IMG/VR virus record: IMGVR_UViG_2681813155_000011
Length of the DNA: 36,508 nucleotides
Origin: a virus
Taxonomy: Duplodnaviria; Heunggongvirae; Uroviricota; Caudoviricetes
Direction: 5' to 3' (one strand)
Shown: piece after piece, positions 14,937 through 35,611 of the stretch
How positions within the stretch are numbered: the first letter of the stretch is position 1
How the letters are laid out: the number at the start of each line of letters is the position of its first letter
Translations under genes and position numbers: made by a program
Notes under the pieces: model-generated
Seen by the model: the letters and a program-made list of their open reading frames with translations, nothing else
Databases searched by the model: none
Told to the model about the DNA's origin: nothing

Positions 14937-14982
14937 AGGGTTAGGTTGCACGGACCTTGAATCTATGGCATCAATACGTCCT

Positions 14983-15000: not shown

Positions 15001-15031
15001 AATACAATTCCAATCAAAGAAAGGTAAAAGA

Positions 15032-15562: not shown

Positions 15563-15567
15563 ACATT

Positions 15568-16020
15568 CTAATTTTTCATCAATAAATACTTTAAAAGTAA
15601 ATCTCTTACTTCATTTTCAGTATGTTCATTTAAACCCAGCAATTTTCGGGATGGATACTTAATGACTCCCCCCTTTGGACTGACGCGATCGCGCAGACCG
15701 TAGTGATGAACACGGGCAATACGCTGTACCTTACCTTCAAACTGTACGCTGGCAGAATCCGCGCTGGCGGCAGTTCTCAGGTATTTTGTGGTGCGCAGCT
15801 TTGCAAACATCTGACGTTTGATGCGCCCCTTCTTGCTGCGTGCTGTTACCCTGCGCGGCTCATAACTGCTGCCATCTGGATTGCGCTGCATCCTGATATT
15901 CTGCTGCTGTGTCCGGCGCAGTTCCTGCGCCAGCTGGCGCATCATTCGGCTTCTTGCGGCTGGTTCCAGATTCGCCAGCAAAGCACTCAGCCAGTCGTCC
16001 ACCTTCTGCAGTTCAGCCAC
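15568..16020 (-). CDS. S: Tail completion protein gpS-like
   Basis: 150 aa; position and size as P2 gpS; overlaps R. Confidence 0.7.
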   Translation of the reverse strand: MAELQKVDDWLSALLANLEPAARSRMMRQLAQELRRTQQQNIRMQRNPDGSSYEPRRVTARSKKGRIKRQMFAKLRTTKYLRTAASADSASVQFEGKVQRIARVHHYGLRDRVSPKGGVIKYPSRKLLGLNEHTENEVRDLLLKYLLMKN

Positions 16021-16465
16021 GTTTCACCGTCCACATTTCTTCAGGTTCATCGGGTTCCGCTACTGCTTCAACGCTCGACACACTTCCGTCAGTGCTGACC
16101 AGCACACGTTCCGTCAGTTGCAGGTTGAGGCTGATATCACAGACATCGTTGCGCAGAATATCCACCTCAAAGGTGAATAACTTTTCCCGTAACGCCGGAT
16201 TATTGATGGCATCGGGCTGGTTATCACGCAGCCACAGCAAAACCGGGGCCATCAGCAGATTCTGGTCGCCGCTGAAATCCTCAATCACCACGTTGAGGGT
16301 ATAACGGTACTCCCATGACATGGAGCTGGCCCCCGTGGCAACCAGCGAACCGTTATCCACAAACAGATGCAGCTTATCCGGGTTATTGCGGACATAAGGC
16401 ACTGCTTTATTGAGGGCGTGGCGCAGGGATTGTGGTTTGTTCACTGTTTCGCTCCTGACACGCAA
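16013..16465 (-). CDS. R: Tail completion protein gpR-like
   Basis: 150 aa; position and size as P2 gpR. Confidence 0.7.
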   Translation of the reverse strand: MRVRSETVNKPQSLRHALNKAVPYVRNNPDKLHLFVDNGSLVATGASSMSWEYRYTLNVVIEDFSGDQNLLMAPVLLWLRDNQPDAINNPALREKLFTFEVDILRNDVCDISLNLQLTERVLVSTDGSVSSVEAVAEPDEPEEMWTVKRG

Positions 16466-16697
16466 TAATCATGTCCACTTTGTCTGCACAGACCGCCCAG
16501 GCGGCCTCCGTTTCATCCAGCAATGCGTTCAGATCACCGTTAGTGCGCGGCGCTGCCTGCTCCAGCCGACACGGCGTCACTCGCGGACAACCACTGACGG
16601 TAAGCTGCACCTCCGGTGAGTGCCGGACGTTCCCGCAGCCGGATAATGTCAGCAGGCAAAGGAGTATCAGCCCAGCGGCGTAAATCCTCGTTCTCAC
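16407..16697 (-). CDS. Putative o-spanin / Rz1-like lipoprotein (LysC-like)
   Basis: N-terminal signal peptide with lipobox LTLSGC, Pro-rich; in the lysis cassette between the endolysin and R. Start uncertain. Confidence 0.45.
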   Translation of the reverse strand: MRTRIYAAGLILLCLLTLSGCGNVRHSPEVQLTVSGCPRVTPCRLEQAAPRTNGDLNALLDETEAAWAVCADKVDMIIACQERNSEQTTIPAPRPQ

Positions 16698-16856
16698 GTT
16701 TCAGTTCCTCGATCCGGTGTTGTCGTTGTCTCAGCAGCGCGCTGGTCTGTTCTGCTTCGGCATAGAGCCGCGCCTGCTCCCTGTTATTGTTTTCAGCCAG
16801 AATGGACAGACTGATCAGCTGGCTATTTTTCTTCGTTAGTTCGTGCGCTTTACTTT

Positions 16857-17546
16857 TCAGCGCCGCGCGCTGCGTTTCGATGGTGTGGCTGGCGCTGTTA
16901 AGCCGCCACGACTGCCAGCCCAGCNNNNNNNNNNNNNNNNNNNNNNNNNNNNNNNNNNNNNNNNNNNNNNNNNNNNNNNNNNNNNNNNNNNNNNNNNNNN
17001 NNNNNNNNNNNNNNNNNNNNNNNNNNNNNNNNNNNNNNNNNNNNNNNNNNNNNNNNNNNNNNNNNNNNNNNNNNNNCGGTTATCCAGCCCCTGATTAAAC
17101 ACACCTTTCACATAAACCCAGCGCGGCAACTGTCGGCACGCTTCTGCCCAGCGCCGCTGATTGAGCAATTTCACCAGCGTAGAACTGCAGGCATTGCCCG
17201 TTCCCACGTTGAAGGCAAACGACACCGTAGCGTCATATACCTTCTGCGGCGGCTGTTGCTTCACACACCTTTCCAGCGCCCGCTCCACACGCAGCACGTT
17301 GGAAATAAGCCCTTCTGCTGCCTGTCGTTCCGTGATTGTTTTGCCGGGAATGACGCCCGACGTATTTCCAATGCCGTCGGTCCAGACACCCGCGCTGCAC
17401 TGATACGGCTGCAGACGACAACCTTCGTAATCGGCAATCAGTTTCAGCCCCTCCACGGAGGTGTGAAGCTGCTGAAACCCCGGCAGCGTGGCAGCAATAG
17501 CCAGCACGGCCCCGACAAGGCAGCGTTTAACGATTGATGGATTCAT
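16857..17546 (-). CDS. Endolysin (lysozyme-like, probable signal-anchor-release type), interrupted by the gap
   Basis: N-terminal hydrophobic segment CLVGAVLAIAATLPG followed by a lysozyme-like body; the 3' part of the ORF runs into the N-run, so the true end is unknown. Confidence 0.6.
   Translation of the reverse strand: MNPSIVKRCLVGAVLAIAATLPGFQQLHTSVEGLKLIADYEGCRLQPYQCSAGVWTDGIGNTSGVIPGKTITERQAAEGLISNVLRVERALERCVKQQPPQKVYDATVSFAFNVGTGNACSSTLVKLLNQRRWAEACRQLPRWVYVKGVFNQGLDNXXXXXXXXXXXXXXXXXXXXXXXXXXXXXXXXXXXXXXXXXXXXXXXXXXXXWAGSRGGLTAPATPSKRSARR
16925..17076. other. Assembly gap (152 N)
   Basis: Run of n characters in the sequence; interrupts the lysis region. Confidence 1.
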
Positions 17547-17742
17547 AGTCCTCCCGCGAAATCTGCCCGTCGCGCAGAAGCTGGTAGGCTTTGTGTTTGT
17601 AGTACCAGTTGATAGCCAGCATCAGCACACCAATCATCAGGCCGCCCAGCGTTGAGGCATCCTTGATGGACAAATCGCCCAGCCAGGCCAGCACAACGGC
17701 GATGCAGTACGTGATAAAGGCGCTGATTCGCTCAAGCGTCAT
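17527..17742 (-). CDS. Putative holin (two transmembrane segments)
   Basis: 71 aa with two hydrophobic helices and a charged C-terminus; directly upstream of the endolysin. Confidence 0.55.
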   Translation of the reverse strand: MTLERISAFITYCIAVVLAWLGDLSIKDASTLGGLMIGVLMLAINWYYKHKAYQLLRDGQISREDYESINR

Positions 17743-17745
17743 AAT

Positions 17746-17949
17746 TCAGTCCCATAGCTGGACGGTCTGCACGGTGGTGGTGGTCGGAATGTCCGGCAGC
17801 TCCACCTGCAGCCCGTGAGGTAAAAAGGGGCCATATTCGGCAAGCCCCGGATTTGCCTTCAGTACCTGCTCCGTGACACCCTGCGTGCGCCCGTAATGAC
17901 GCCAGCAAAGCGCGTCCACCGTGTCATACTGATGCGCACGCACTTTCAT
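17746..17949 (-). CDS. X: Tail protein gpX-like
   Basis: 67 aa, same size and position as P2 gpX (between L and the lysis genes). Confidence 0.7.
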   Translation of the reverse strand: MKVRAHQYDTVDALCWRHYGRTQGVTEQVLKANPGLAEYGPFLPHGLQVELPDIPTTTTVQTVQLWD

Positions 17950-18476
17950 CAGATAAGCTCCACTGTGCAGTGCGGCGCATCCTGCACCCGGCTGATGGCC
18001 CAGCGGGCGTCACGCCACAAATCACCGCTGGATTCCGCCAGTTCCTCGCCTCGCTTCACACCGGATGCCGTGGCGTCATAGTCCTGGTATCGTTCGTTGA
18101 GCATGGCGCGTGCCCAGCAGTAAACCGCGTTGAAATAGTGCTGGATGCGCTCACTTTTGCCGTCCAGCTGTTCCGCCGGAACCTCAGCCAGCGACGCATA
18201 CCCCAGCATCTGCTGACGTCTGCGAAACTCATACAGCTCTGCGTTGACCTCCGAAATTGCCGACAGCGCAACCTGCTTTAAACGCGGCTGCGTCACCGTG
18301 CCGTCAGTGCGCATGACACTGCGAAACTCCGACAGGTCCACATCAGGCCAGAACGGCGTATTCCTGATGATTTCCGCCTGTTCCGGTGCCTGTTCTGGCG
18401 CAACAAACTTCATGCTGCTTTCTCCTGAAATAGAGGGCGGTGGACGGGGTTTTGATGTGGCAGTGCCTTTCGCCAC
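17949..18476 (-). CDS. L: Capsid completion protein gpL-like
   Basis: 175 aa, downstream of M; P2 synteny. Confidence 0.7.
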   Translation of the reverse strand: MAKGTATSKPRPPPSISGESSMKFVAPEQAPEQAEIIRNTPFWPDVDLSEFRSVMRTDGTVTQPRLKQVALSAISEVNAELYEFRRRQQMLGYASLAEVPAEQLDGKSERIQHYFNAVYCWARAMLNERYQDYDATASGVKRGEELAESSGDLWRDARWAISRVQDAPHCTVELI

Positions 18477-18508
18477 CCCGTGCCGCCCGTGCGCGGGGGC
18501 ACGTTCTG

Positions 18509-19159
18509 TCAGCGGCTGTCATTGCGCAGTCTGCGCTCCAGCTGCTGTTTGTCTTTTTTCACGCCACAGCGGGGATCGAGCTGTAACGCATGGTTGAGAT
18601 GATTAAGGGCGGACGCCGGATTGTTTTCACTCAGGACAGCGCCAATCGCTTTATGCAGACGCGCCCGTGACTGGTCCGGCATATCCATACCGTCTGTCAG
18701 CTCCAGCGTCTGCAGCAACAGATCGGCATCAAAGCCGGTGGCGGCAAGCATTGCGCTCTGGGCTGCATCTGCCATTTCCTCTGCCAGCACGGTCTGCACG
18801 TTGCGGTTACCCAGCGGCATCACCCAGCCATGACGCAGGGCATGACGCCCGATCTCCAGCGCCCCGGCATAATCTCCGGCATCAATGCGCCACAGCATCA
18901 CGTACATCAGCACGTCATCCTGTTGAGCGCCTCCGGCAGCCAGGACACCCTCTGCCCAGGCGGCGTACTTCGGCAGCAGCTCCACCTTGATTTCCGCTTT
19001 TTTGACCGTGGACTGAACGCCCTTGAGACGGCGGCGGTCTTCCGCCAGTTGCAGCAGCATCAGGTCATAGCCCGACGCGTGGCGAACACTGCCGCCCTCG
19101 CGGGCGGCCTGTTCAGCCTGAACGCGCAGGCGATGCTGCCGTGCGGGACTCAGGCTCAT
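18509..19159 (-). CDS. M: Terminase small (endonuclease) subunit gpM-like
   Basis: 216 aa, between N and L; P2 synteny. Confidence 0.7.
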   Translation of the reverse strand: MSLSPARQHRLRVQAEQAAREGGSVRHASGYDLMLLQLAEDRRRLKGVQSTVKKAEIKVELLPKYAAWAEGVLAAGGAQQDDVLMYVMLWRIDAGDYAGALEIGRHALRHGWVMPLGNRNVQTVLAEEMADAAQSAMLAATGFDADLLLQTLELTDGMDMPDQSRARLHKAIGAVLSENNPASALNHLNHALQLDPRCGVKKDKQQLERRLRNDSR

Positions 19160-19162
19160 GGT

Positions 19163-20221
19163 TTATGCTCCGGCTTCTGCGGCGGCGGCGCTGAAGTCGC
19201 CAATCTGGATGTTTTCCACCAGTGCTGCGCAGCGGTAGTCCTCAACCACATAGGCTTCGTTAACGGATTCAAAGTTTTCAATCCGGTCACGTTTCGGGTT
19301 GTCGATAACCGAACGGCGGCGGGTGTCCTCCTGCCAGTAAATGGACAGGTTATCCAGACGGGTGATCAGCAGCGCATTCGGCGGGAAGAACGGCGCACGC
19401 ACGGCCTGCAGGCCACCCATGCGTTTCTGACTGATGATCATATCGGCAGCCAGTTTTTCACTGTTTTCCTGCTCTTTGTTGACCAGCGGGAAATACTTGT
19501 CAGACAGCAGCTCACGACCGCAAATCACCACCAGATCGTCATCGTCCTGGTAGACCACGTCGATAAGCTCATTGACAGCATCCATCACCACGGCGTCCAG
19601 GTTGGCATATTCTCCACCTTTGCCGACTTTCACCGCGCCCGGTGTGGTTTCACCACCCGTGGTGGTGCTGCCCATGACGTGATCCGGTGCATCCTCACGG
19701 ATTTTCTGCAGCCAGCCTTTGTTCACATCCTGCAGCAGCGGGTTTTCACTACGGTTGGAGGTTTTCGCACGCTTCACGCCGTTAAAGCCGATCATGATGC
19801 GGTCCAGTGCCTGACGTTTCACGATGGCGTCACGGATACGCACCTGGAAATCCTGAAACTTCGCCCACAGGTCCAGCTTCGCGTAGGTCAGCACCGTGTC
19901 AAAGTTGGTCTGTTCACATTTGTATTCCACATCGACCATCAGCGTCGGATCGACAGGTTCACGCTCTTTCGCGGTGGTATCAGTGGTTCCGGCAATGGTG
20001 CTGCCAACACCCAGCCCCAGCAGCTGACCGGACTGCTCAGTCACTGGCGTGACGTTAATCAGCGTCAGGAAAGCGGCGGACTGCTGGATCTGGTCTTCCA
20101 GCGTCTGCTGCACAGACGGCTCCACAGTGAACTTGCTGGACAGTTCTTCAACTGCCACACCGTTCAGACGCGCCAGCTGCTGCAGGTAAGCATTAAAAGC
20201 AAAGCGGGTATTCTTCTTCAT
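19163..20221 (-). CDS. N: Major capsid protein gpN-like
   Basis: 352 aa, after the scaffold gene; size as P2 gpN. Confidence 0.8.
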   Translation of the reverse strand: MKKNTRFAFNAYLQQLARLNGVAVEELSSKFTVEPSVQQTLEDQIQQSAAFLTLINVTPVTEQSGQLLGLGVGSTIAGTTDTTAKEREPVDPTLMVDVEYKCEQTNFDTVLTYAKLDLWAKFQDFQVRIRDAIVKRQALDRIMIGFNGVKRAKTSNRSENPLLQDVNKGWLQKIREDAPDHVMGSTTTGGETTPGAVKVGKGGEYANLDAVVMDAVNELIDVVYQDDDDLVVICGRELLSDKYFPLVNKEQENSEKLAADMIISQKRMGGLQAVRAPFFPPNALLITRLDNLSIYWQEDTRRRSVIDNPKRDRIENFESVNEAYVVEDYRCAALVENIQIGDFSAAAAEAGA

Positions 20222-20237
20222 CAGGTTTTGTGCTCCA

Positions 20238-21071
20238 TCAGCAATTGGTCAGAGTGTCAGCGGTGGCGTTACCGCCTGTTGCACGCTGGCGGTAGTCCTG
20301 GCGGCTGTCTTCATGGCTCAGCTTGTCCACCAGTTCGTTAAAAGCGGTCTGCTGTGCCTGCAGGGAAGTCTCCAGCTCAGACAGGCGTTCTTCCTGTTCA
20401 GACAGGGATTTTTCGGTGCGCGCACTCAGGTTTTGCTGTTCAGTGGCGACCAGTTCCACGGCCTTATGCACATCAGAGAACCGGGCATCATCGGACTGCT
20501 CTTTTTTGGTAAACAGCGCCGTGACGCGGGCAAACAGGGACGGCTTGTCCTCCTGGATTTCTTCCAGTTCGATCACCGTTTCCTCTGCAGCGGTAAAAAG
20601 ATTGGCAGGATTCTGCTTGCGGTTTGCCAGCGGGTTATGGGCTGCACTGGCGCTGAATGTCAGCATTTCCGTACCCAGACTGGCGGGATCATCAGTGGCA
20701 GCCAGGCCGACCAGGTAGGCTTTGCCCGTATCAGCAAACTTCGGGCTGACTTCCATAGAGGTGAATAATTTCTGGCCTTTTTTCACCAGTTCCACCAGGG
20801 ACTCCGTTGGCTCAACGTCGGCATACAGTGCCATCTTGCCTGCCAGCGGACCTTCCGCGATTTCTTCAGCAAACAGCGCCGTCACCTTGCCGTAGCGGTT
20901 AAACGTGCTGTCCGGCAGATAAGACTTAATGTGCTCAAGGTTAATCAGCGCGGTATACACCGCCGGGTTGTAGCTGGCTGCCATCTGTTCCAGCCATTCA
21001 CGCTGGATTTCGCGTCCGTCGGTAGTGGCACCTTCCACCCCGATGCGAAAACGCTTTGCTTTCACTGTCAT
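20238..21071 (-). CDS. O: Capsid scaffold protein gpO-like
   Basis: 277 aa, Glu/Ala-rich coiled C-terminus; divergent from P. Confidence 0.75.
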   Translation of the reverse strand: MTVKAKRFRIGVEGATTDGREIQREWLEQMAASYNPAVYTALINLEHIKSYLPDSTFNRYGKVTALFAEEIAEGPLAGKMALYADVEPTESLVELVKKGQKLFTSMEVSPKFADTGKAYLVGLAATDDPASLGTEMLTFSASAAHNPLANRKQNPANLFTAAEETVIELEEIQEDKPSLFARVTALFTKKEQSDDARFSDVHKAVELVATEQQNLSARTEKSLSEQEERLSELETSLQAQQTAFNELVDKLSHEDSRQDYRQRATGGNATADTLTNC

Positions 21072-21149
21072 GAGCCGTGCTCCGTTAGAAAAAACTTACT
21101 GGAGCCTTATGGTTGCGATGATGGGGGCAGTGAAACAATGCGCGGTATT

Positions 21150-21167
21150 TGTACCGACAACCACACA
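21150..21167. promoter_or_regulatory. Candidate Ogr-dependent late promoter element (TGT-N12-ACA) in the O/P divergent region
   Basis: tgtaccgacaaccacaca between divergent O and P; could serve either or both directions. Confidence 0.45.
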
Positions 21168-21213
21168 AACCGCAGGCGGGGAAAGCCTTCAATCAAGGCT
21201 GTAGGTTTGTGCC

Positions 21214-22980
21214 ATGAACACCACACTGACACCCGCAGATCTCGATCCCCGTCGGCAGGCCATGCTGCTGTACTTTCAGGGATACCGCGTAGCCCGCATT
21301 GCTGAAATGCTGGGCGAGAAAGTTGCAACCGTTCACAGCTGGAAAAAACGCGACAAGTGGGGTGACTATGGGCCGCTGGATCAGATGCAGCTCACCACCG
21401 CCGCCCGCTACTGCCAGCTCATTATGAAGGAGCACAAAGAAGGGAAAGATTTCAAAGAAATTGACCTGCTGGCGCGCCAGTCGGAGCGCCACGCGCGGAT
21501 CGGCAAGTTTAACAATGGCGGCAACGAAGCCGACTTAAACCCTAACGTCGCCAACCGCAACAAAGGGCCGCGCCGTCAGCCGGAAAAGAATGTTTTCACC
21601 GATGAACAGATTGAGAAGCTGGAAGAAATCTTCCATTCCTCCATGTTCAACTACCAGCGCCACTGGTGGGAAGCCGGAAAAACCAATCGCATCCGCAACC
21701 TGCTGAAGTCTCGCCAGATCGGCGCGACCTTTTACTTTGCCCGTGAAGCCCTGATTGACGCCCTGCTGACCGGACGTAACCAGATTTTCCTTTCCGCCAG
21801 TAAGGCACAGGCCCACGTCTTTAAGCAGTACATCATCGACTTCGCCAAAGAAGTCGAGGTGGAGCTGAAAGGCGATCCGATGGTGCTTCCTAACGGGGCC
21901 ACGCTTTACTTCCTCGGCACCAATGCCCGCACGGCCCAGAGTTACCACGGCAACCTGTATCTGGATGAATATTTCTGGATACCGAAATTCCAGGAGCTGC
22001 GCAAAGTGGCTTCCGGTATGGCTATTCACAAAAAATGGCGACAAACCTATTTTTCCACGCCATCCAGCCTGACACACAGTGCTTATCCGTTCTGGTCCGG
22101 TGCGCTGTTCAACCGAGGGCGCAACAAAGCCGATAAGGTGGACATCGACCTGTCCCACAGCAATCTGGCCCCCGGCCTGCTGTGCGCAGACGGGCAGTAC
22201 CGCCAGATAGTCACCGTGGAAGATGCGGTGCGCGGCGGCTGTAACCTGTTCGACCTTGACCAGTTGCGCATGGAGTACAGCCCGGACGAATACCAGAACC
22301 TGCTGATGTGCGAGTTCGTGGACGATCTCGCGTCCGTGTTCCCGCTCAGCGAGCTGCAGGCGTGCATGGTGGACAGTTGGGAAGTCTGGACCGACTTTCA
22401 TGCACTGGCCCTGCGCCCGTTTGGCTGGCGCGAAGTGTGGATCGGATATGACCCGGCGAAAGGTACGCAGAACGGCGACAGCGCCGGATGCGTGGTGGTG
22501 GCGCCGCCAGCCGTGCCGGGCGGTAAGTTCCGCATTCTTGAGCGTCACCAGTGGCGCGGAATGGACTTCCGCGCCCAGGCTGACGCCATCAAAAAACTGA
22601 CCGAACAGTACAACGTGACCTATATCGGTATCGACTCGACCGGCGTTGGTCACGGGGTTTACGAGAACGTGAAAGCGTTTTTTCCTGCCGTCCGGGAGTT
22701 TGTCTACAACCCCAACGTTAAAAACGCCCTGGTACTCAAGGCCTACGACATTATCAGCCACCGCCGTCTGGAGTTTGACGCCGGACACACCGACATAGCG
22801 CAGTCCTTTATGGCAATCCGTCGCGCCACCACCGCCAGTGGCAACCGCCCGACCTATGAAGCCAGCCGCAGCGAAGAAGCCAGCCACGCCGATCTGGCCT
22901 GGGCAACGATGCACGCACTGTTTAACGAACCGCTGCAGGGCGAATCCGCCAATACCAGCAATATTGTGGAGATTTTTTGA
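21214..22980 (+). CDS. P: Terminase large (ATPase) subunit gpP-like
   Basis: 588 aa, size of P2 gpP; divergent from O and followed by overlapping Q. Confidence 0.8.
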   Translation: MNTTLTPADLDPRRQAMLLYFQGYRVARIAEMLGEKVATVHSWKKRDKWGDYGPLDQMQLTTAARYCQLIMKEHKEGKDFKEIDLLARQSERHARIGKFNNGGNEADLNPNVANRNKGPRRQPEKNVFTDEQIEKLEEIFHSSMFNYQRHWWEAGKTNRIRNLLKSRQIGATFYFAREALIDALLTGRNQIFLSASKAQAHVFKQYIIDFAKEVEVELKGDPMVLPNGATLYFLGTNARTAQSYHGNLYLDEYFWIPKFQELRKVASGMAIHKKWRQTYFSTPSSLTHSAYPFWSGALFNRGRNKADKVDIDLSHSNLAPGLLCADGQYRQIVTVEDAVRGGCNLFDLDQLRMEYSPDEYQNLLMCEFVDDLASVFPLSELQACMVDSWEVWTDFHALALRPFGWREVWIGYDPAKGTQNGDSAGCVVVAPPAVPGGKFRILERHQWRGMDFRAQADAIKKLTEQYNVTYIGIDSTGVGHGVYENVKAFFPAVREFVYNPNVKNALVLKAYDIISHRRLEFDAGHTDIAQSFMAIRRATTASGNRPTYEASRSEEASHADLAWATMHALFNEPLQGESANTSNIVEIF

Positions 22981-24014
22981 TGGGAAAGAGTAAGAAGAAC
23001 CGCGCTGCGGCGACGAAACAGATCCAGCTTAAAAGTCAAACTACAGCCGAAGCATTCAGCTTCGGCGATCCCGTTCCTGTTCTGGACCGCCGAGAACTGC
23101 TGGATTATGTGGAATGCGTACAGATGGACCGCTGGTATGAGCCGCCCGTCAGCTTTGACGGACTGGCGCGCACCTTCCGCGCTGCCGTGCATCATAGTTC
23201 CCCGATTGCAGTAAAGTGCAACATTCTGACCAGCACCTACATCCCTCACCCGCTGCTCAGCCAGCAGGCTTTTTCGCGTTTTGTGCAGGACTATCTGGTT
23301 TTTGGTAACGCCTACCTGGAGAAACGCACGAACCGCTTCGGTGAAGTTATCGCCCTTGAGCCTGCACTGGCAAAATACACCCGACGCGGGTTAGACCTGG
23401 ATACCTACTGGTTTGTGCAATACGGTATGACAACCCAGCCGTATCAGTTCACGAAAGGCAGCATTTTTCATCTGATGGAACCGGATATTAATCAGGAGAT
23501 CTACGGCCTGCCCGGTTATCTTTCTGCCATTCCGTCAGCCCTGCTCAACGAGTCCGCCACGCTGTTCCGTCGCAAGTATTACATTAACGGCAGTCATGCG
23601 GGCTTTATCATGTACATGACCGATGCCGCGCAAAACCAGGAGGATGTGAACAACCTCCGCAATGCGATGAAAAGCGCCAAAGGTCCAGGCAACTTCCGCA
23701 ACCTGTTTATGTACTCGCCTAACGGCAAAAAAGACGGGCTTCAGATCATCCCATTGTCAGAAGTCGCGGCGAAGGATGAGTTTTTGAATATCAAAAATGT
23801 CAGCCGCGACGACATGATGGCTGCGCACCGCGTGCCGCCGCAAATGATGGGGATTATGCCTAATAATGTTGGAGGGTTTGGGGATGTGGAGAAGGCCAGT
23901 CGCGTATTTGTACGTAATGAATTAACTCCCTTGCAAAAAAGGCTACAAGAGCTGAACGACTGGCTGGGCGAAGAAGTGATTAAATTTACGCCCTATATTC
24001 TTTCAGAAGAATAA
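22977..24014 (+). CDS. Q: Portal protein gpQ-like
   Basis: 345 aa, size of P2 gpQ; ATGA overlap with the end of P. Confidence 0.8.
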   Translation: MMGKSKKNRAAATKQIQLKSQTTAEAFSFGDPVPVLDRRELLDYVECVQMDRWYEPPVSFDGLARTFRAAVHHSSPIAVKCNILTSTYIPHPLLSQQAFSRFVQDYLVFGNAYLEKRTNRFGEVIALEPALAKYTRRGLDLDTYWFVQYGMTTQPYQFTKGSIFHLMEPDINQEIYGLPGYLSAIPSALLNESATLFRRKYYINGSHAGFIMYMTDAAQNQEDVNNLRNAMKSAKGPGNFRNLFMYSPNGKKDGLQIIPLSEVAAKDEFLNIKNVSRDDMMAAHRVPPQMMGIMPNNVGGFGDVEKASRVFVRNELTPLQKRLQELNDWLGEEVIKFTPYILSEE

Positions 24015-24022
24015 TTCCGAAC

Positions 24023-24721
24023 TTATTTGTTTCTTCTTTGTTCACGCCTTGTCTTGGCTTCGATAAGGCGTTGAGGTTCAGTGTAAAGCCGTTCTAAAAA
24101 AAGATAGGTAAAATCTTCAAGATCCTCAGCAGCAGCTTTATCCAAAATACCTTCATGCGCTCCATCATTTCCGTCATCTTTAACGCATTCAGCTAGTTCC
24201 CTTAAAGCTTCAGGCAGTAGATGATTATCAAATAACCACTCCATTCTTAACCCTAGGCTTCTCCTTATTTTTTGCGCAGGCCCTTGCTCCCCATCAGGAA
24301 GAAGTCCTTTTGTGGCATAATCAAGGCAAAGCCTAAACATGGTTGCTGCTGCATTATAACAACCTATAGCCAAACATTTCGCCCCTTCCTCATATGCACT
24401 ATTGATATGCTCAGGTAAGAACTCTGGTGGCTCCTCTACTGCTAAGTCTGCCGGTGATATAGGCCTAACAACCTCTGCAACTTCCTTTAAGCCGAATATT
24501 CCACTTTCCCAATTATAGCCATCTAAAGTTTTATTTTTCGTTAAAGGTCTGCAAAGAAACATTGTCGTTTTATGACACTCTCGGCAAACACAATAGACCT
24601 CGTACTCGTATGTTTTACCCCCGCCCAATGCATTGTAAACCCTAGTGCAATTCAGCCCATTAACATCAAACGCTATTTTTTGTGATCCACATCGTGGACA
24701 GTCATCCACTAACATAACCAT
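24023..24721 (-). CDS. Cargo protein: N-terminal zinc ribbon + C-terminal DUF4145-like domain (candidate single-gene defence/abortive-infection protein)
   Basis: 232 aa. N-terminus CPRCG...CVCRECHK (four Cys); C-terminus ...LPEALRELAECVKDDGNDGAHEGILDKAAAEDLEDFTYLFLERLY resembles the GN-x-AAH core of DUF4145 as I recall it. GGAGG 8 nt upstream; sits between the candidate cos and Q. Confidence 0.5.
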   Translation of the reverse strand: MVMLVDDCPRCGSQKIAFDVNGLNCTRVYNALGGGKTYEYEVYCVCRECHKTTMFLCRPLTKNKTLDGYNWESGIFGLKEVAEVVRPISPADLAVEEPPEFLPEHINSAYEEGAKCLAIGCYNAAATMFRLCLDYATKGLLPDGEQGPAQKIRRSLGLRMEWLFDNHLLPEALRELAECVKDDGNDGAHEGILDKAAAEDLEDFTYLFLERLYTEPQRLIEAKTRREQRRNK

Positions 24722-24831
24722 GTCAATTACTCCTCCCTATGAAAAAAATGAGTTGAAAAATTGAATATTCACGACTTAAAAAGCTAGCCTATTTAACACC
24801 ATAATTTCATTAATTCAACCATGAGCGCGCG

Positions 24832-24850
24832 CTCGTATCCCCGCCACGCC
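24832..24850 (-). other. Candidate cos (cohesive-end) site
   Basis: Minus strand reads GGCGTGGCGGGGATACGAG; the first 13 nt match the GC-rich start of the 186/P2 cohesive end as I remember it (GGCG(T/A)GGCGGGGA...). Confidence 0.4.
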
Positions 24851-24892
24851 TGCCCGCTTTATGTAGTGGTTTTCATGCACCTGCATGATCTA

Positions 24893-24919
24893 CGCAAAAG
24901 CCCGCCAGTTCTGGCGGGC
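24893..24919 (-). terminator. Rho-independent terminator downstream of the tum-like operon
   Basis: Perfect inverted repeat gcccgccag/ctggcgggc followed on the minus strand by ctttt. Confidence 0.55.
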
Positions 24920-25054
24920 CTTAGCAAAAACGATCCTCAAACGATCATGCGATCTCATGCGGCATAGACATGCACTACAGAGCTAACGCCTCGCAAGGGC
25001 TCGTTGTTCAACCTTGCTGACGCCAGAAGCAAGTTCAGACGCCAGCAACGTTTC

Positions 25055-25288
25055 TTAATGCAGCCAGCTGTCGTCTTCCCACACCTTCTGCATAATTTTC
25101 ATCACTTGTTTTCTTTCTTCGTCCAGTTGCAGTCCGGTTAGTTCCACACCGTTAGAGCTACCTTTGCGAATGCGAATTACCGTTTTGGGATACAGGGGGC
25201 GCAGATTGCGGTAAAGCTCGGATTCAAGGGCGTCCAGGGTAGACTGGCTAATCTTCTGCTCTTTATCGATCATTATTTCAATGCGCAT
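25055..25288 (-). CDS. DinI-like protein
   Basis: 77 aa from an internal Met: MRIEIMIDKEQKISQSTLDALESELYRNLRPLYP...VWEDDSWLH parallels E. coli DinI (MRIEVTIAK...LAGELSRRIQ...TWESADDWF). GAGGTG RBS overlaps the upstream stop. Confidence 0.75.
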   Translation of the reverse strand: MRIEIMIDKEQKISQSTLDALESELYRNLRPLYPKTVIRIRKGSSNGVELTGLQLDEERKQVMKIMQKVWEDDSWLH

Positions 25289-25298
25289 AAAAGTCACC

Positions 25299-25487
25299 TC
25301 AGCTGATGACATCCATTGAGCGGTTGTATTCGTGGGTTCTGATTTTTGCCATGAGTTCATCAGTCAATTCAGAAACCCACTGCAGAGCCAGCCCCTTCTC
25401 TTCATCACTACACTCACTAGCCGCTACAAGCTTAAGAAAAAAATCAATGCGCTGGAGCTTCAAAGACTCCAAAAAATAGTCCTGCAT
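25299..25487 (-). CDS. Small LexA-controlled protein, candidate Tum-like antirepressor
   Basis: 62 aa from MQDYFLESL; AGGAGG 4 nt upstream; translationally coupled to the DinI-like gene; a LexA box lies 42 bp upstream. Confidence 0.5.
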   Translation of the reverse strand: MQDYFLESLKLQRIDFFLKLVAASECSDEEKGLALQWVSELTDELMAKIRTHEYNRSMDVIS

Positions 25488-25528
25488 CTTTCCTCCTATG
25501 ACACCACACGCAACACTGTATGTATAAC

Positions 25529-25548
25529 CACTGTTTATATTTACAGTA
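25529..25548. promoter_or_regulatory. LexA (SOS) box
   Basis: cactgtttatatttacagta = CTGT-N8-ACAG with an AT-rich spacer, the E. coli LexA operator consensus. Confidence 0.75.
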
Positions 25549-25640
25549 TATAATAATCTTACTGATGTAAAACGTTTTTTTACGTTCATCAGCCTGATAT
25601 GCCTGGTATTATTAAGAGCACGAATTGTTAATCCGCGTAA

Positions 25641-28055
25641 TTAATACAGGTTCCGCCACTGATCATCTTCCTGCAAACGCTGGTTCCGATAGAAGATACG
25701 CAGGCCTGCTCCTGACGGAATACTGCCTCCGCGAAGGAGTAAATCGACCTCTTTCTCGCTGCCATCAAATCCTCTGGACTTCAGCTCATACACGAGCTGC
25801 AGTCGCTGATGGTCTGTAATTCGCTGTTTGTAGTCTTTACGCCGTTTCGGTTTCACCAGGCGTAACCTTGCTGCCAGTTCCCGGCGCTCTTTTTTGCTCA
25901 TACTGTGCAGGTAATCGTGCAACTCCTTGTCATCCATGCTGGTAATGTCCGTTCTGGGGTCCCCATTAGCTGATTTATCTTTCTCCTGTTGGTTCAAATT
26001 TTCAGCAAGGGGACAGTTATTGCCACGAGTCCAAGGGGCGCAAGCGCCCTGGTCGGCTGCCGCCTCCTGAACGTCAACGGCCTTACGAACCATTTTCCAC
26101 TTCACGGCATGAGTGCAGATCTTGCCCTCTGCAATAGGTGACCAGATGCCATAAATACGAATGCCGTGATCGCCATAGGCGGTCGGCTCTTCGTTGATTT
26201 CATAAGCAGTTCTGATGAGGTGATATTTGCGGGGAACCAGTACGCCACCCTGCTTCATGATGTAGGTGGCAAAACAACCAGCATCAGCAGCAGCCAGAAT
26301 GGCATCAAGGCGCGGGTTATCCAGTACCGGCGCACCTGCTTTTTTGTCCCCCTGTTGCCTTGCCGCCTGACCAGCCAGCAATCGCAGTTCACGGTAAGCC
26401 TGACGCCCCGGAATGCCAAAGAAGCGGAATTGCTGAACACGATGCAGAGACGCCCAGGCATTAACGTATTCAGCATTATCACGCAGGGATTTCCCCGTTT
26501 CCTTGCTGATCTCGCCAGCCAGACCACGCCCGTCAATGTTCTTACTGATGTATTTCGCGATGTAGCTTGTTGGCGTACCTTTGCGCGGGTTAATCAACTC
26601 AGACTTAAAGCGCGGCCCAGTGTTATTGCCCAGCTCCTCGCGGTCTTCACGGATGGCAAACTTACGCAGTAATGCAGTGATGGTGCGGCGGTCTTTTTTG
26701 CGCATAAAACACAACAGGTGCCAGTGAACTGTACCGTCATGATGCGGCTCAGCCACCCGCACGCCATACCACCGCAATCCGGCTTTGTGCATCGCCTTAC
26801 GAAATGCAGCAAACATGCCGACCAGATAATCACTGCTTTGTCTTACCGTCGCATTTGTCCAGGTTGGGTTGGGCCTGCCGTTATTTAGCGTGGAATGGAA
26901 ACGTGACGGACAGGTGATGGTGTAGAAAACGGCGCAGTCACCGCGCATTTCCGCGATAAGCTCCAGACCTTTAACACAGGCCATCATCTCATTGCGGCGA
27001 TGCGCTGGGTTGCTGCTGCTGGCGTTTACCACATCCTCCATGTCCAGCGTGTCGCCGTCTTCGTTCACCAGTTCATGAGAACGGAAAAACTCCAGCGACT
27101 TACGGCGCTGCTCACGTTTATGCATCACGGCTTCATAGCTGACATAAGGAGATGCTTTTTTGCTGACAAGGCAGACTGCACGCAACTGCTCTTCCCGCCA
27201 TTCGCAACGCATCTTCCATAATTTCCGATACCACCAGTCGGCGCACAACATACGCGCCAGCGAACCCGGAATGAGTTCATAGGGCACGGGTTTACGGCGG
27301 TTTCTTTTCCGACGGAGTTGCTCAAACGCAGGCGGGATGACATCCAGACGCAGGGTTTCCGCTGCCACCCTTTCCCATGTATTGCGGATTTCTTCTGGCT
27401 TAACGTCATCGGTGGCATACAAATCGCCACAAGCGGCATCAAGGCACATACTCATATGCGCAGCTACCAGGGTGGACAGGCGTTTCACCTGATCCTGACT
27501 CATTTCAGGCAGGATCAGCAGGCCGTCCAGCCCTTCATGGCTTGCCATAAAGCGAAAAGATGCAGATAGCTGACTGTCGCGTACATGCTCCAGTCGTTCC
27601 AGACATGGCTTAATCGTCTCACGTAAATAGCGGGAATAAGCCTTTGGCCTGCCAAGGCTGCTGAAGTATTCAATACGTTGCATCAGCGGCTTGCTGATAT
27701 GGGAAGGCTGGGCGTTGACGTCCGCCAGAATGACCATATCCGGATTAAAACGCTGCTGCTCATGCGCCAGCTTTGCCCGACTAATGAGCTTATCCTGTTC
27801 CATTTCGCGCTGGACAGGATCACGGGATTCATTAAAGAAATAACGCTCCCAGACCTGATCACTCAGCGCCTCACGGCGCAGCTGTTCCTGCTCGTTATCG
27901 GCAGCGTACAGAGTGATCAGGTTTGAAAGCGTAGAAACCGGCGCAACTTCCACCGGGTCCAGATAAGGGTTAATGGCCTTTTTCGGGCTGTTCCATGAGA
28001 ACGATGCGGCAGCTTCGTTAAAGCCGCAGCAGTTGTTCATATCGGCATGACTCAT
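25641..28055 (-). CDS. A: Replication initiation protein (P2/186 gene A-like)
   Basis: 804 aa; position between the early operon and the tum/cos region as in P2/186. Called on size and synteny; motifs not verified. Confidence 0.7.
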
Positions 28056-31030: not shown

Positions 31031-31146
31031 AGTGCAGTATCTCTTAGTTTGGTTTCGTTTTATCTTGTTTTATGTGGTTTGGTTTTGCTTTTCAAACCAT
31101 AAATGGATATTAGGATCACTTTTTATATACGTCAAGGGGTTTGATT
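31031..31146. promoter_or_regulatory. Lysis-lysogeny switch region (pR/pL-like promoters and operator repeats)
   Basis: Minus-strand sigma70 promoter TTGACG-17-TAATAT (plus-strand 31130..31135 and 31107..31112); candidate plus-strand promoter TTGCTT-17-TATTAG; repeated GGTTTGGTTT motifs at 31046..31080. Confidence 0.5.
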
Positions 31147-31779
31147 ATGAGTTTGATCAAGGCGGGAAATGATAGTGGTGGGCGCGATGCAATTAACAGG
31201 CTTATTAAGGCTTACAACTTCAGCTCACGACAGCAGCTCTGCGAACATCTGGAGGTATCCAAAAGCACTATGGCTAACAGATACTTAAGGGATAGCTTTC
31301 CTGCTGAATGGGTAATTCAATGTGCCCTTGAAACAGGAGCTTCCCTTCTATGGCTGGCTACTGGTCAAGGAGATATGTATGCGTGTGAGAACGAAGAAAC
31401 AAATCTCAAAAATGAACCTCCCGTTACTGTAAGACCACTTTCTAAGATCGTTGCTCCTAGCATCAAACGTGTTGAACTGAAGAACGGCGAACTGCAGGCA
31501 AGTGATGAAATTCTTCTTGATAGCAGCCTGCTCGATGGTGACTCATCCAACGCTTTATTTGTTAAAACAGCTAATAATAGCTTTGTAGTGGATACGTCCG
31601 TTAAACAAGTCAGTAATGGCTTCTGGTTAGTCGATATGGACGGAGTTAAAAGCATCGTCAAAATTGCGCGCATACCCGGAAACAAAATAGTAGTTAACCA
31701 AGATGACACTTCATTTGAATGTTCTGTAGATGATGTGGAAGTCGTAGGACGTGCAGTCAAAGTAATCAAGAACCTCTAA
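31147..31779 (+). CDS. cI: CI-like immunity repressor (186 type)
   Basis: Start at ATG 31147 (AAGGGG RBS); N-terminal HTH (QLCEHLEVSKSTMANRYLRD); directly upstream of int. Confidence 0.7.
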   Translation: MSLIKAGNDSGGRDAINRLIKAYNFSSRQQLCEHLEVSKSTMANRYLRDSFPAEWVIQCALETGASLLWLATGQGDMYACENEETNLKNEPPVTVRPLSKIVAPSIKRVELKNGELQASDEILLDSSLLDGDSSNALFVKTANNSFVVDTSVKQVSNGFWLVDMDGVKSIVKIARIPGNKIVVNQDDTSFECSVDDVEVVGRAVKVIKNL

Positions 31780-32808: not shown

Positions 32809-34035
32809 ATGACTCTCCATCAAACTTTATCTAAAGAATTAAGAGATTTATTTGTTAGTATTTTAAGACGTTCTCTTTTTCGCCCCCCCATCAAAATAAA
32901 TGGGGATATAGTCTCTGATTTTTCAAACAGATGCGAGCAGTTCAAAGAGTGCCTAAATGAATACATTTGTGATAACAATAATGCTGCTTCTGAAAGAGTT
33001 AAACCAAGAATTAAAACTATTGAAAAAATACAACATGGATTAACTAATTCTCTTAAAGCATTTTTATCTGGCGACATTAAAGGAGCCTACGATATTTTTG
33101 ATGAAGTTTTATCATACCCTACTGTCTATAGACATCTAAGAAGAATATCCATTCCACTAAAAGAAATATGTAATAAGCACAAGCCTTTATTCAGGGTAAG
33201 AAAGTCAGATAGACCAGTCGTAACAAGAAAGGAAATCTTTCATATCCCATTCACTCATCGACATCTTGTCAATGCTCAACGCTATTCCGTTGCAGGTTTG
33301 CCATGCCTTTACTTAGGTTCATCTCTCTATATATGCTGGCAGGAAATGGATAAACCTGACTTTGATAAATTATACCTATCATCATTTATATCTTGGGATG
33401 AGGAATCCTATATTTTAAATTTAGCTGCAGATTTTCTTTACAGTAGAACCGCTAAAGGATTTTACGGTGATATTAGTAATAGAGACAACCTCATTAAAAT
33501 ATCATATTTAACTTTATGGCCTCTGATAATTGCATGTAATTATTTAAAGCAGAATGAAAACTCTTCATTTAATCAAGAATATATCATCCCAAATTTGTTA
33601 ATGCAGTGGATAAGTCGACTTGAAGATAGAGCTATTGTCGGCATAGCATATCGCTCAACAAAAATAAAAAGAACAGCAAACTCACACTTAGCAACTAATG
33701 TCGTCTTGCCTCCAAAAGTAAACTATGAAGACACAATCACAAAACCTTATTGTCAGAAACTATTGTCAATGTTTGAGTTTACTCAACCTGTATCATGGCA
33801 GGTTTTGAAAACATTAGACTATAAAATTGATAATGAAATAAATCAAGAGCAAGAAAAAGCAATTCATTTACTAAAACAGAAAGAAAGATTAAGTGGCATA
33901 AAAGATTTAAATGAAGATCTTATAAACCTTTATCCTTTAACAGACTTCTACAAGCTAGAACAGTGCATGGATCGCCTGCTGCAGTATGATGTACTTGAGA
34001 TAAAATCTGGCGGCACTTTGGCGGCAGAGCATTAA
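32809..34035 (+). CDS. Cargo protein with RES-domain-like core (candidate NAD+-targeting toxin/defence effector)
   Basis: 408 aa, strongly AT-rich, starts 3 bp after the int stop. QRYSVAGLPCLYLGSSLYICWQE and IVGIAYRSTKIKRTANSHLATNVVLPP fit the Arg / Glu / Ser motif order of the RES domain; extra N- and C-terminal regions of unknown fold. Confidence 0.5.
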   Translation: MTLHQTLSKELRDLFVSILRRSLFRPPIKINGDIVSDFSNRCEQFKECLNEYICDNNNAASERVKPRIKTIEKIQHGLTNSLKAFLSGDIKGAYDIFDEVLSYPTVYRHLRRISIPLKEICNKHKPLFRVRKSDRPVVTRKEIFHIPFTHRHLVNAQRYSVAGLPCLYLGSSLYICWQEMDKPDFDKLYLSSFISWDEESYILNLAADFLYSRTAKGFYGDISNRDNLIKISYLTLWPLIIACNYLKQNENSSFNQEYIIPNLLMQWISRLEDRAIVGIAYRSTKIKRTANSHLATNVVLPPKVNYEDTITKPYCQKLLSMFEFTQPVSWQVLKTLDYKIDNEINQEQEKAIHLLKQKERLSGIKDLNEDLINLYPLTDFYKLEQCMDRLLQYDVLEIKSGGTLAAEH

Positions 34036-34120
34036 AAATAGATAAAACAAGCAAACACACAATAACACTAACATACTAATTTTAAAGATAAATACATGTT
34101 TTTATTATAGTAAAAATGGT

Positions 34121-34167
34121 ATGTAGGAATTTCGGACGCGGGTTCAACTCCCGCCAGCTCCACCAAA
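34121..34167. repeat. attR: 47-bp direct repeat (duplicate of the ssrA 3' end)
   Basis: Identical to 1016..1062; followed by the native ssrA downstream sequence including a GC hairpin + T-run (34215..34248). Confidence 0.85.
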
Positions 34168-34369
34168 ATTCTCCATCGGTGATTACCAGAGTCATCCGAT
34201 GAAGTCCTAAGAGCCCGCACGGCGCAAGCCCTGCGGGCTTTTTTGTGCTCCGAATTTGTCCCGCGAAGTCTGATGCCAACTAATTAAATCCGATCCTTTT
34301 AGGCACCTTGTTAGGCACTTCATAAAGCTATATTGTCTTTGAGGTGCCTAAAACTATGGAAACCCGGCA

Positions 34370-35611
34370 ATGGCAAGACAAACCAAACCTCTATCCGTTA
34401 AGGAAATCGAATCTGCTAAACCCAAGGAAGCGGACTACGTTCTCTATGATGGCGATGGCCTTGAGCTACTCATTAAATCCAGCGGGAGTAAAATCTGGCA
34501 GTTTCGCTACATTCGCCCTGTCACCAAGACACGAGCAAAGAAAAGCATAGGCCCTTACCCGTCAGTTACCCTTGCCGATGCCAGAAACTACCGTGCAGAG
34601 TCCCGCTCACTCCTAGCTAAACAGATTGATCCGCAGGAACATCAGCAAGAACAATTGCGTAGTTCGCTGGAAGCCAAAACCAATACTTTCCAGCTCGTAG
34701 CTGAACGTTGGTGGAATGTGAAGAAAGCCAGTGTGACAGAGGACTATGCGGAAGATATCTGGCGCTCTCTTGAAAGAGATGTCTTTCCTGCGATTGGCGA
34801 CGTTAGCGTTACAGATATTAAAGCTCATACACTGGTTCAGGCCGTACAACCGGTTCAGGCCAGAGGAGCACTGGAAACGGTTCGTCGCCTGTGTCAACGT
34901 ATTAATGAGGTCATGATCTATGCCCAGAACACAGGGCTGATTGATGCTGTTCCCAGCGTTAATATCGGTAAAGCCTTCGAAAAGCCTCAGAAAAAGAACA
35001 TGCCCAGCATTCGACCGGATCAGCTATCTCAACTGATGCAGACAATGCGAACAGCCAGCATTAGCCTTTCCACACGCTGCCTGTTCATGTGGCAACTTCT
35101 TACTATTACCCGCCCTGCCGAAGCGGCTGAAGCTCGCTGGGAAGAAGTAGACATAGAAGCGCAAGAGTGGAAGATTCCCGCAGCACGCATGAAAATGAAC
35201 CGCGACCATACTGTTCCATTGTCAGATGAAGCAATAGCTGTGCTGGAGATGATGAAACCGCTAAGCGGCAACCGAGAATTTATCTTTCCTAGCCGTATCA
35301 AGCCCAACCAGCCTATGAACAGTCAGACTGTTAACGCCTCACTAAAACGCGCAGGTTTTGGTGGTGTGCTTGTTTCGCATGGTCTGAGATCAATTGCCAG
35401 TACGGCTCTTAATGAACAAGGCTTTCCGCCTGATGCCATTGAGGCAGCATTGGCCCATGTGGATAAGAATGAGGTTCGTCGTGCTTATAACCGCAGCGAT
35501 TACCTGGAACAGCGTCGCCCGATGATGCAATGGTGGGCAAATTTTGTGATGGCAGCGGATCGTGGAAGCATGATTGAAGGTGGGATAAAAGGAATGAAGC
35601 TAGTTGGGTGA
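34370..35611 (+). CDS. intA: P4/CP4-57-family integrase
   Basis: 413 aa, MARQTKPLSVKEIESAKPKEADYVLYDGDGLELLIKSSGSKIWQFRY... resembles E. coli IntA, which sits at ssrA in K-12. Confidence 0.8.
   Translation: MARQTKPLSVKEIESAKPKEADYVLYDGDGLELLIKSSGSKIWQFRYIRPVTKTRAKKSIGPYPSVTLADARNYRAESRSLLAKQIDPQEHQQEQLRSSLEAKTNTFQLVAERWWNVKKASVTEDYAEDIWRSLERDVFPAIGDVSVTDIKAHTLVQAVQPVQARGALETVRRLCQRINEVMIYAQNTGLIDAVPSVNIGKAFEKPQKKNMPSIRPDQLSQLMQTMRTASISLSTRCLFMWQLLTITRPAEAAEARWEEVDIEAQEWKIPAARMKMNRDHTVPLSDEAIAVLEMMKPLSGNREFIFPSRIKPNQPMNSQTVNASLKRAGFGGVLVSHGLRSIASTALNEQGFPPDAIEAALAHVDKNEVRRAYNRSDYLEQRRPMMQWWANFVMAADRGSMIEGGIKGMKLVG

Follow-up and report, generated by a model that had tools for sequence, protein, structure and literature searches.

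In phage 186, Tum is a LexA-controlled inhibitor (antirepressor) of the CI repressor (PMC7708051; PMC3121763). Two relatives, Fels-2 and PSP3, carry tum split by a stop codon (Lemire et al. 2011, PMC3121763), and the upstream gene of PSP3 has been reported to be an antirepressor (PMC3121763); the PSP3 record itself describes tumA as 'similar to 5′ end 186 tum; UV induction of prophage' and tumB as 'similar to dinI and 3′ end of 186 tum'. A comparable combination is found in the dinI-gfoA/gftA operons of the Gifsy prophages, which are LexA-repressed and encode a DinI homologue together with a small trans-acting antirepressor (PMC3121763). Finally, the Phollow study constructed an in-frame Δtum deletion in the E. 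coli HS prophage DuoHS (preprint PMC11195241; Nat Microbiol 2025, PMC12055606), and in E. coli HS the Δtum and lexA(Ind-) alleles each abolish mitomycin C lysis as well as viral foci (PMC12055606).

The window analysed here, the whole stretch of 36,508 nucleotides of phage DNA, contains a two-gene operon next to gene A that a preliminary description, made from the sequence alone, had likened to 186 tum. Very probably, the operon serves the SOS induction of a Fels-2/Cartapus-like P2-family prophage at ssrA and represents 186 tum in its split, tumA/tumB-type form. The initial finding is real and was correctly read, and it concerns already known biology; what the present analysis adds is the homology link between the 62-aa ORF and Tum, the tie to DuoHS, the colicin-type double operator and the contrast between TumA and CI. 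The minus strand carries every feature of the operon, which is the conventional P2/186 map orientation. These features, together with the neighbouring replication gene and the CI gene, are as follows:

25641..28055, minus strand: gene A (replication), a full-length ORF
25566..25571, minus strand: putative -35 element TTTACA of the tum promoter, assigned by homology, 17 bp upstream of TACTGT
25543..25548, minus strand: putative -10 element TACTGT, read off the sequence, which doubles as the left arm of SOS box 1 and equals the -10 annotated for 186 p95
25548..25529, minus strand: SOS (LexA) box 1, TACTGTAAATATAAACAGTG, 17/20 to the LexA consensus
25533..25514, minus strand: putative SOS box 2, CAGTGGTTATACATACAGTG, 14/20 to the consensus
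25497..25492, minus strand: strong Shine-Dalgarno AGGAGG of the 62-aa ORF
25299..25487 (stop codon included), minus strand: tumA-type antirepressor gene, 62 aa, assigned from a phrog_698 match and profile homology to Tum
25055..25288 (stop codon included), minus strand: tumB-type DinI-like gene, 77 aa, assigned from Pfam DinI
about 25048..25014, minus strand: conserved stem-loop without a U tract, directly after the tumB stop, from RNA folding
24922..24896, minus strand: intrinsic terminator with stem GGCCCGCCAG/CUGGCGGGCU followed by UUUU, ΔG -27.9 kcal/mol, z -5.6
31141..31779, plus strand: 186-type CI immunity repressor gene, the presumed antirepressor target, assigned from Pfam

The tum operon begins at 25571 on the minus strand, directly 3′ of gene A, and is a transcription unit of its own at the right end of the early region; about 70 nt separate the end of gene A (25641) from the promoter-like arrangement. 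This placement is common to 186, PSP3, Fels-2, DuoHS and the loci of eight distant members of the TumA family, all eight of which lie directly after a P2-type gene A. The two ORFs of the operon do not overlap: the TGA of the 62-aa ORF is 10 nt from the DinI-like ORF and is overlain by GAGGTG, the ribosome site of the DinI-like gene. Because the ribosome site of the second gene spans the TGA of the first, the translational coupling that had been proposed for the pair is plausible, although the genes are adjacent rather than overlapping. The fused 146-aa polypeptide of 186, which comes with nested shorter products, has no counterpart here; instead there are two ORFs split by the TGA and 10 nt, the PSP3/Fels-2 form of the layout. 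PSP3 has the same split, with an upstream gene of about 60 aa, a 77-aa DinI-like gene and a LexA box upstream, but its intergenic gap is 3 nt. Extended frames of 96 aa and 101 aa for tumA and tumB were considered and rejected: the extensions cross the promoter/operator or enter the upstream gene, and the extended starts are also contradicted by the family alignment, which begins at MQDY.

Two RNA structures follow tumB. The segment of 82 nt that holds the stem-loop directly after the stop codon folds at -30.2 kcal/mol (z -2.0), and the stem-loop is kept in PSP3, where it likewise follows tumB, in the related locus L012 and in E. coli HS, with double (compensatory) changes in 9 of 18 pairs. The strong intrinsic terminator comes 130 nt further on, and none of 200 shuffled sequences folds equally well. 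A terminator does follow the operon, as had been claimed, but the real one lies outside the 25055-25548 interval in which the operon had been placed. The order of elements resembles that of 186, where a partial terminator/hairpin and then a further gene come after tum. A 'terminator-like' call between tumA and tumB (25310..25293) corresponds to a weak hairpin (z -1.1) and is not regarded as a terminator, and an Rfam search of 23900..25800 returned no credible match.

The tum promoter was identified by comparison with 186, whose record annotates p95 as -35 TTCACA, 18 bp and -10 TACTGT. Most of the related loci carry TT[TC]ACA 17-19 bp before the TACTGT box, the -35 being degenerate in some. Given that a generic sigma-70 promoter scan did not call the tum promoter, we treat the -10 and -35 elements as putative. 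As in 186, the -10 hexamer TACTGT forms the left arm of the LexA box, so that, as far as sequence alone can tell, the LexA box overlaps the promoter. The preliminary description had recognised this box as a consensus LexA operator located 42 bp upstream of the 62-aa ORF. As a sequence feature the operator is confirmed: CTGT-N8-ACAG is present at 25531..25546, reaches 17/20 over the 20-mer and is conserved across 22 loci. The ORF is also as described, with the gap amended to 43 nt between the 16-bp LexA core and the tumA ATG.

The CTGT-N8-ACAG motif occurs once in the 36.5-kb window, which counts for little by itself because shuffled sequence contains a mean of 0.5 matches. For a broader comparison we used 22 related loci (168.5 kb), including 186, PSP3, Fels-2, SopEPhi, Cartapus, Kp4871-2 and contigs of the eight distant family members, whose small protein is 33-48% identical to the 62-aa protein here, and counted the CTG-N10-CAG sites that agree with the LexA consensus at 16 or more of 20 positions. 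Each locus has one such site, directly 5′ of the Tum-family ORF, and no such site was found elsewhere in the 168.5 kb. In the distant loci the box scores 16-19/20 and lies 35-41 nt ahead of the start codon. This comparative evidence settles the question of whether the predicted LexA box goes beyond chance.

The single LexA box of the preliminary description does not hold, in that a second box (25533..25514) overlaps the first by 5 bp at a fixed offset of +15. Box 2 is kept in Fels-2, SopEPhi, Cartapus, Kp4871-2 and DuoHS. With two 20-bp boxes at a 15-bp offset and a CAGTG left arm in box 2, the operator is of the colicin type. Its 35-nt unit, TACTGTAAATATAAACAGTGGTTATACATACAGTG, is identical at 30 of 35 positions to TACTGTATATAAAACCAGTGGTTATATGTACAGTG, the operator that a 9.3-kb plasmid of Klebsiella carries 43 nt ahead of a gene for a tRNase bacteriocin; the unit is also similar to the ColE1 cea operator, and box 2 of Fels-2 is identical to box 2 of the cea operator. 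The element at +15 scores 14-16/20 in the Fels-2 clade and in the colicin operators, compared with 4-7/20 in 186, PSP3 and the related loci L011 and L012, and the remaining sampled relatives have one high-scoring box only. The colicin and klebicin operators thus share with the tum operator the 5-bp overlap of the boxes and the GTG left arm of box 2. The promoters differ: those of the colicin genes have a separate -10 with the boxes just downstream of it, whereas box 1 of the tum operator appears to contain the -10. Since the likeness ends at the operator edges, common descent and convergence are both possible. We found no mention of a double SOS box at a phage tum operator in the searchable literature.

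Colicin operators with two overlapping SOS boxes have been reported to be bound by two LexA dimers and to keep basal expression undetectable (PMC2994835, where the two-dimer occupancy is cited from Lu and Chak 1996). By analogy, the double operator here probably binds two LexA dimers, so that basal expression would be very low and the threshold of damage high. It is also possible, though we think it doubtful, that only box 1 is functional and that box 2 is a non-binding relic, which may for example have arisen by a 15-bp duplication of the right arm, with regulation then proceeding as at the single-box p95 of 186. The left arm of box 2 indeed reads GTG where CTG is critical, its agreement with the consensus is only 14/20, and a single box suffices in 186, PSP3 and the eight distant relatives. 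On the other hand, the +15 offset of box 2 is constant in all five elements that keep it, while the flanking 5′ UTR varies; the exact agreement between box 2 of Fels-2 and that of ColE1 and the sharing of the GTG left arm with colicin operators that are reported to bind two LexA dimers (PMC2994835) likewise argue for a functional second box.

The 62-aa protein matches phrog_698, a family of unknown function (3.6e-38). No Pfam or NCBIfam model matches it, PADLOC has no model for it, and a whole-library HMMER search yielded only 66 representatives of the family at 50% clustering. Pairwise BLASTP of the 62-aa protein against 186 Tum and PSP3 TumA gave no match, and a profile was therefore needed to link the protein to Tum. 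Aligned by hhalign, a 27-sequence family profile matches 186 Tum (94.9%, E 4.7e-8) with residues 3-45 corresponding to Tum 3-45, and PSP3 TumA, which is barely related, weakly (E 0.005, probability 7%). The likeness of the 62-aa protein to the Tum N-terminal region is thus a profile-level one, with a core common to the family and Tum of C-x7-AL-x-[LW]-[IV]-[AS]-E-[IL]. The AlphaFold2 model of the protein is a two-helix hairpin (residues 2-23 and 28-61, pLDDT 85.8); none of the solved structures is sequence-related to it, and a Foldseek search of the model against the PDB returned generic helical hairpins only, all with E >1.

The identification of the second gene as DinI-like is borne out by Pfam, where the 77-aa protein matches DinI (PF06183) over the entire profile (1-63/63) with 81.3 bits (cut-off 24.2, E 6.6e-23). 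The NCBIfam DinI equivalog model NF007893 gives 42.7 bits, below its cut-off of 111, and we therefore regard the protein as a DinI-like paralogue rather than as host DinI; its match to E. coli DinI (PDB 1GHH) has an E value of 2.7e-6. The 77-aa protein also aligns over its whole length with residues 71 to about 146 of 186 Tum, with 41% identity over 75 residues (E 3e-24). In the 186 record, Tum residues 71-146 correspond to a nested, GTG-started product annotated as modulating SOS induction. DinI acts on RecA filaments. From this action and the 186 annotation, the DinI-like protein most likely adjusts how strong the RecA/SOS signal is or how long it lasts, instead of targeting CI. Among the eight distant TumA-family loci, seven have no adjacent DinI gene, and these still lie directly after gene A and have a LexA box, indicating that the small protein is the conserved core and that the DinI-like protein is accessory and dispensable for the core function. 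The 62-aa protein, and not the DinI homologue, is very probably the inducer.

Taking the profile and DinI alignments together, the tumA and tumB pair corresponds to 186 Tum cut into two halves, the first homologous to the antirepressor region at the N terminus of the 186 protein and the second to the DinI-like region at its C terminus. The proposed relationship to 186 Tum is therefore upheld, by the location after gene A, the LexA box, the DinI homology and the profile match to Tum 3-45. The suggestion to compare the small protein and the separate DinI homologue with 186 Tum is answered by the same alignments, and such a split has been documented for PSP3 and Fels-2 (PMC3121763). Both 186 and PSP3 differ from the present locus in having a single SOS box. 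The Gifsy operons share with it the combination of a LexA-repressed DinI homologue and a small antirepressor, but in them dinI comes first (the reversed order), the antirepressors and repressors belong to unrelated families, and the prophages are lambdoid, not P2-like.

The DuoHS prophage provides the most direct functional comparison. The published junction primers for its Δtum deletion match the window exactly at 25485..25507 and 25279..25301, the start and the stop of the 62-aa ORF. In these primers, GTGGTGTCATAGGAGGAAAGATG is joined to TGA and ATAGGAGGAAAGATG is joined to TGAGGTGACTTTTATGCGCATTG. The deletion thus joined the start and stop codons of tumA and left the DinI-like gene in place. 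DuoHS TumA (ECHS_RS04495, annotated as 'hypothetical protein') is identical to the 62-aa protein at 61 of 62 residues, the DNA of the locus is about 99% identical, the promoter and both SOS boxes differ by one base, and the same 10-nt junction precedes the DinI-like ECHS_RS04500. The mitomycin C and deletion experiments proposed for the present locus have therefore essentially been done on a sister element. SOS inducibility, which had been predicted for the prophage here and which its sequence would imply, has been demonstrated in the near-identical DuoHS (PMC12055606). The two elements differ in their cargo genes downstream of the operon, which are unlike one another, and in CI: the DuoHS protein has 189 aa and the one here 212 aa, with only 40% identity between them, which means that the Δtum result is no strict proof that TumA inactivates CI in the present prophage.

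Fels-2 of Salmonella LT2 is similarly close. Its genes (STM2728 and STM2726.1, the latter being STM2727 in LT2 numbering) encode a TumA that is 98% identical and a DinI-like protein, STM2726.1, that is 100% identical to those here; CI is 92% and Apl 100% identical, and the operator has the double SOS box. Like the prophage here, Fels-2 integrates at ssrA. The gene downstream of the operon is a different one, encoding 243 aa in Fels-2 and 232 aa here, and the late region of the present prophage is Cartapus-like, not Fels-2-like. A study of a Fels-2 lysogen flagged the operon STM2726-STM2727-STM2728 for differential expression; in it, STM2727 went up 5.5- to 14.8-fold with the mutagen MX and is listed among the LexA-regulon genes (PMC2225428). 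A lexA null mutation is reportedly lethal owing to Fels-2 (Bunny et al. 2002, as cited in PMC3121763).

The presumed target of TumA is the 212-aa CI, which is 30% identical to 186 CI. Pfam reports two families only for this protein, Phage_CI_repr (8e-33) and Phage_CI_C (5e-40), and the search detected no peptidase-type self-cleavage domain. At the level of domain searches, the repressor is therefore of the 186 type and not self-cleaving, and SOS induction would be expected to go through an antirepressor. These features bear on the idea that the operon is a lysogenic-conversion cassette which modulates the host SOS response through its DinI-like protein and has no role as an induction switch. 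DinI-like genes are common as prophage cargo, RefSeq labels the pair 'DinI-like family protein' and 'hypothetical protein', and a variable region with a defence-like gene adjoins the operon. Even so, we regard a conversion cassette as extremely unlikely: the operon shares its position, promoter and LexA box with 186 tum, Δtum abolishes the induction of DuoHS, and a CI without a detected self-cleavage domain needs an antirepressor to respond to SOS. For annotation, the 62-aa ORF, which RefSeq still labels 'hypothetical protein', can now carry the name of a Tum-family (TumA-type) antirepressor.

The repressors of the closest relatives vary considerably more than their antirepressors. Fels-2, Cartapus, Kp4871-2 and DuoHS have TumA proteins that are 98-100% identical, whereas their CI proteins share 92%, 58%, 35% and 40% identity, respectively, with CI here. 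The variation is uneven along CI, with the N-terminal domain 60-98% and the C-terminal domain 28-88% identical in the same phages. We did not find a near-invariant antirepressor paired with divergent CI reported in the searchable literature. Either TumA contacts a conserved surface on the N-terminal domain of CI, which would permit cross-induction of heteroimmune prophages, or its specificity is broader than one-to-one pairing. An inhibitor that works by specific protein-protein contact would not usually stay so constant next to CI proteins with only 35-58% identity, and the constancy could mean that the 62-aa protein does not act on CI at all but triggers induction through another target (such as Apl/CII, LexA or RecA) or is just an upstream frame needed for translation of the DinI-like protein, which would then be the effector. 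We consider this very unlikely in view of the profile homology to the N-terminal region of Tum, which in 186 is a CI antirepressor (PMC7708051), the antirepressor activity reported for the upstream gene of PSP3 (PMC3121763), the seven distant loci that lack a DinI gene yet still follow gene A and have the LexA box, and the DuoHS deletion, which fused the start and stop codons while the DinI-like gene stayed.

Retaining TumA as an antirepressor of CI, we tentatively propose, as an idea somewhat more likely to be wrong than right, that the Fels-2/Cartapus/DuoHS clade has acquired a colicin-type operator, with a higher and more all-or-none threshold compared to 186, together with a TumA that serves as a 'master key' for divergent CI proteins. 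Such a TumA may inactivate CI proteins that are 35-92% identical through the conserved N-terminal SKST..RY.RD.FPA.W.IQC.LETG. If this is true, one damaged cell could fire several heteroimmune P2-like prophages in trans, like the Gifsy antirepressors. The double SOS box and the contrast between TumA and CI offer small, testable leads on induction thresholds and on cross-talk between prophages.

From the sequence we infer LexA binding, TumA-CI binding and inducibility for the prophage here, and the switch would operate as follows. In the lysogen, LexA would occupy the operator over the -10/start region of the p95-type promoter and keep the operon silent, and the paired SOS boxes, by holding two LexA dimers, would keep basal expression low and set a high level of damage before lysis. 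Upon DNA damage, RecA-stimulated cleavage of LexA would free the promoter and the 62-residue, two-helix TumA-type protein would be made. This protein would bind the 186-type CI and take it off its operators; the early lytic promoter would then fire (Apl, replication gene A), and the prophage would excise and grow. The DinI-like protein, made from the same message, would tune the RecA/SOS signal.

The prophage looks complete, as judged from its immunity genes, its Cartapus-like late region and its ssrA junction. Its immunity region is of the 186 type, with genes for CI, CII, Int and an Apl-like protein, all of them, like gene A, full-length ORFs. Positions 1016..24882 of the window are 99.5% identical to the isolated phage Cartapus (88% of the query), and the element adjoins ssrA, with the tmRNA at 698..1060. 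That the module is present in a defective prophage and is of no consequence for phage production in the strain is unlikely. Intactness is here judged by similarity alone, and an IS1 and a second integrase lie beyond the end of the prophage; the near-identity to Cartapus, the full-length gene A, CI, CII, Apl-like gene and Int and the location of IS1 outside the prophage nevertheless favour an intact element.

Of 5426 complete E. coli genomes, 1144 contain the module, which is thus widespread among prophages and acts as the damage-inducible switch of the phage. Genotoxic antibiotics, among them mitomycin C, ciprofloxacin and trimethoprim, would therefore be expected to mobilise the phage together with any cargo genes on it. 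The gene downstream of the tum operon encodes a 232-aa DUF4145 protein, which we tested as a homologue of 186 orf97 and found to be unrelated. A defence-like gene is located in the variable region adjoining the tum operon.

Comparison of the window's CI region (31141..31779, (+) strand), which encodes the 186-type immunity repressor, with the related loci L019 (Kp4871-2), L020, L021 and L024 (E. coli HS) revealed that identity is 86-100% for gene A, TumA and CII and falls to 35-58% for CI, and that the Apl-like gene is replaced in some of these loci. The CI, Apl-like and Int genes, which make up the immunity module, are thus mosaic when set against the replication/tum module.

The TumA family itself varies at its C terminus. 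Many distant members, namely P0147, P0149, P0152, P0155, P0172, P0177 and P0181, share a conserved C-terminal tail, K-N/S-P-Q-x-GG-x3-G-x2-LQ, which is missing from the window's TumA. Among the loci examined for these proteins (L004, L006/L007 and L016/L017), those of P0147, P0149 and P0172 contain no DinI-like gene, and in all three the end of the tailed ORF overlaps the convergent ogr/delta gene. Both in E. coli genomes and among protein database matches, gene callers often report the 62-aa TumA ORF as an 84-101-aa protein, starting at ATGs that lie upstream of the promoter and operator, and RefSeq names it only 'hypothetical protein'.

Two RNA structures are associated with the DinI-like gene:
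25293..25310, (-): weak hairpin (GUCAUC/GGUGAC) covering both the stop codon of TumA and the DinI-like gene's ribosome site
25014..25048, (-): stem-loop lacking a U tract, directly 3′ of the DinI-like stop codon

The latter has equivalents in L003 (PSP3, 5560-5600), L012 (~2945-2980) and L024 (~25055-25090), and is conserved with compensatory changes in four diverged phages, with double changes in 9 of 18 pairs. This element might stabilise the mRNA or direct its processing, or might be the equivalent of the 186 partial terminator t95a. The junction hairpin is no better than shuffled sequence (z -1.1); it could couple translation of the DinI-like gene to ribosomes completing TumA.

In Klebsiella phage Kp4871-2 we observed a second LexA-like box, TACTGTGTGTATAACCAGTG (1157-1176, 15/20), close to the phage's left end and distant from its tum operon. 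The window has no counterpart of comparable quality.

Outside these modules, the following features were noted:
698..1060, (+): ssrA (tmRNA gene), at the left prophage end
24023..24721, (-): 232-aa DUF4145 protein, with the terminator of the tum operon on one side and the portal gene on the other
32809..34035, (+): 408-aa ORF, just after the prophage integrase
34370..35611: P4-type integrase, beyond the integrase end of the prophage (region 34082..36508)
from 35811: IS1 insA/insB, also beyond that end

The DUF4145 gene is located where P2-like phages carry variable cargo. Its product matches Pfam DUF4145 (4.5e-7), phrog_1305 and, weakly, PADLOC PD-T7-4 (1.2e-6); the gene is a candidate for anti-phage defence. 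We rejected it as the counterpart of 186 orf97, to which it has no homology despite sharing its place.

The ssrA gene is likely the attachment site and, since a P4-type integrase and IS1 lie beyond the right end, the prophage appears to be inserted between ssrA and another island. The 408-aa ORF had no match in Pfam or PADLOC; phage Cartapus has, at the equivalent position, a gene whose annotation reads putative RES-domain protein, and the ORF is possibly a further cargo or defence gene.
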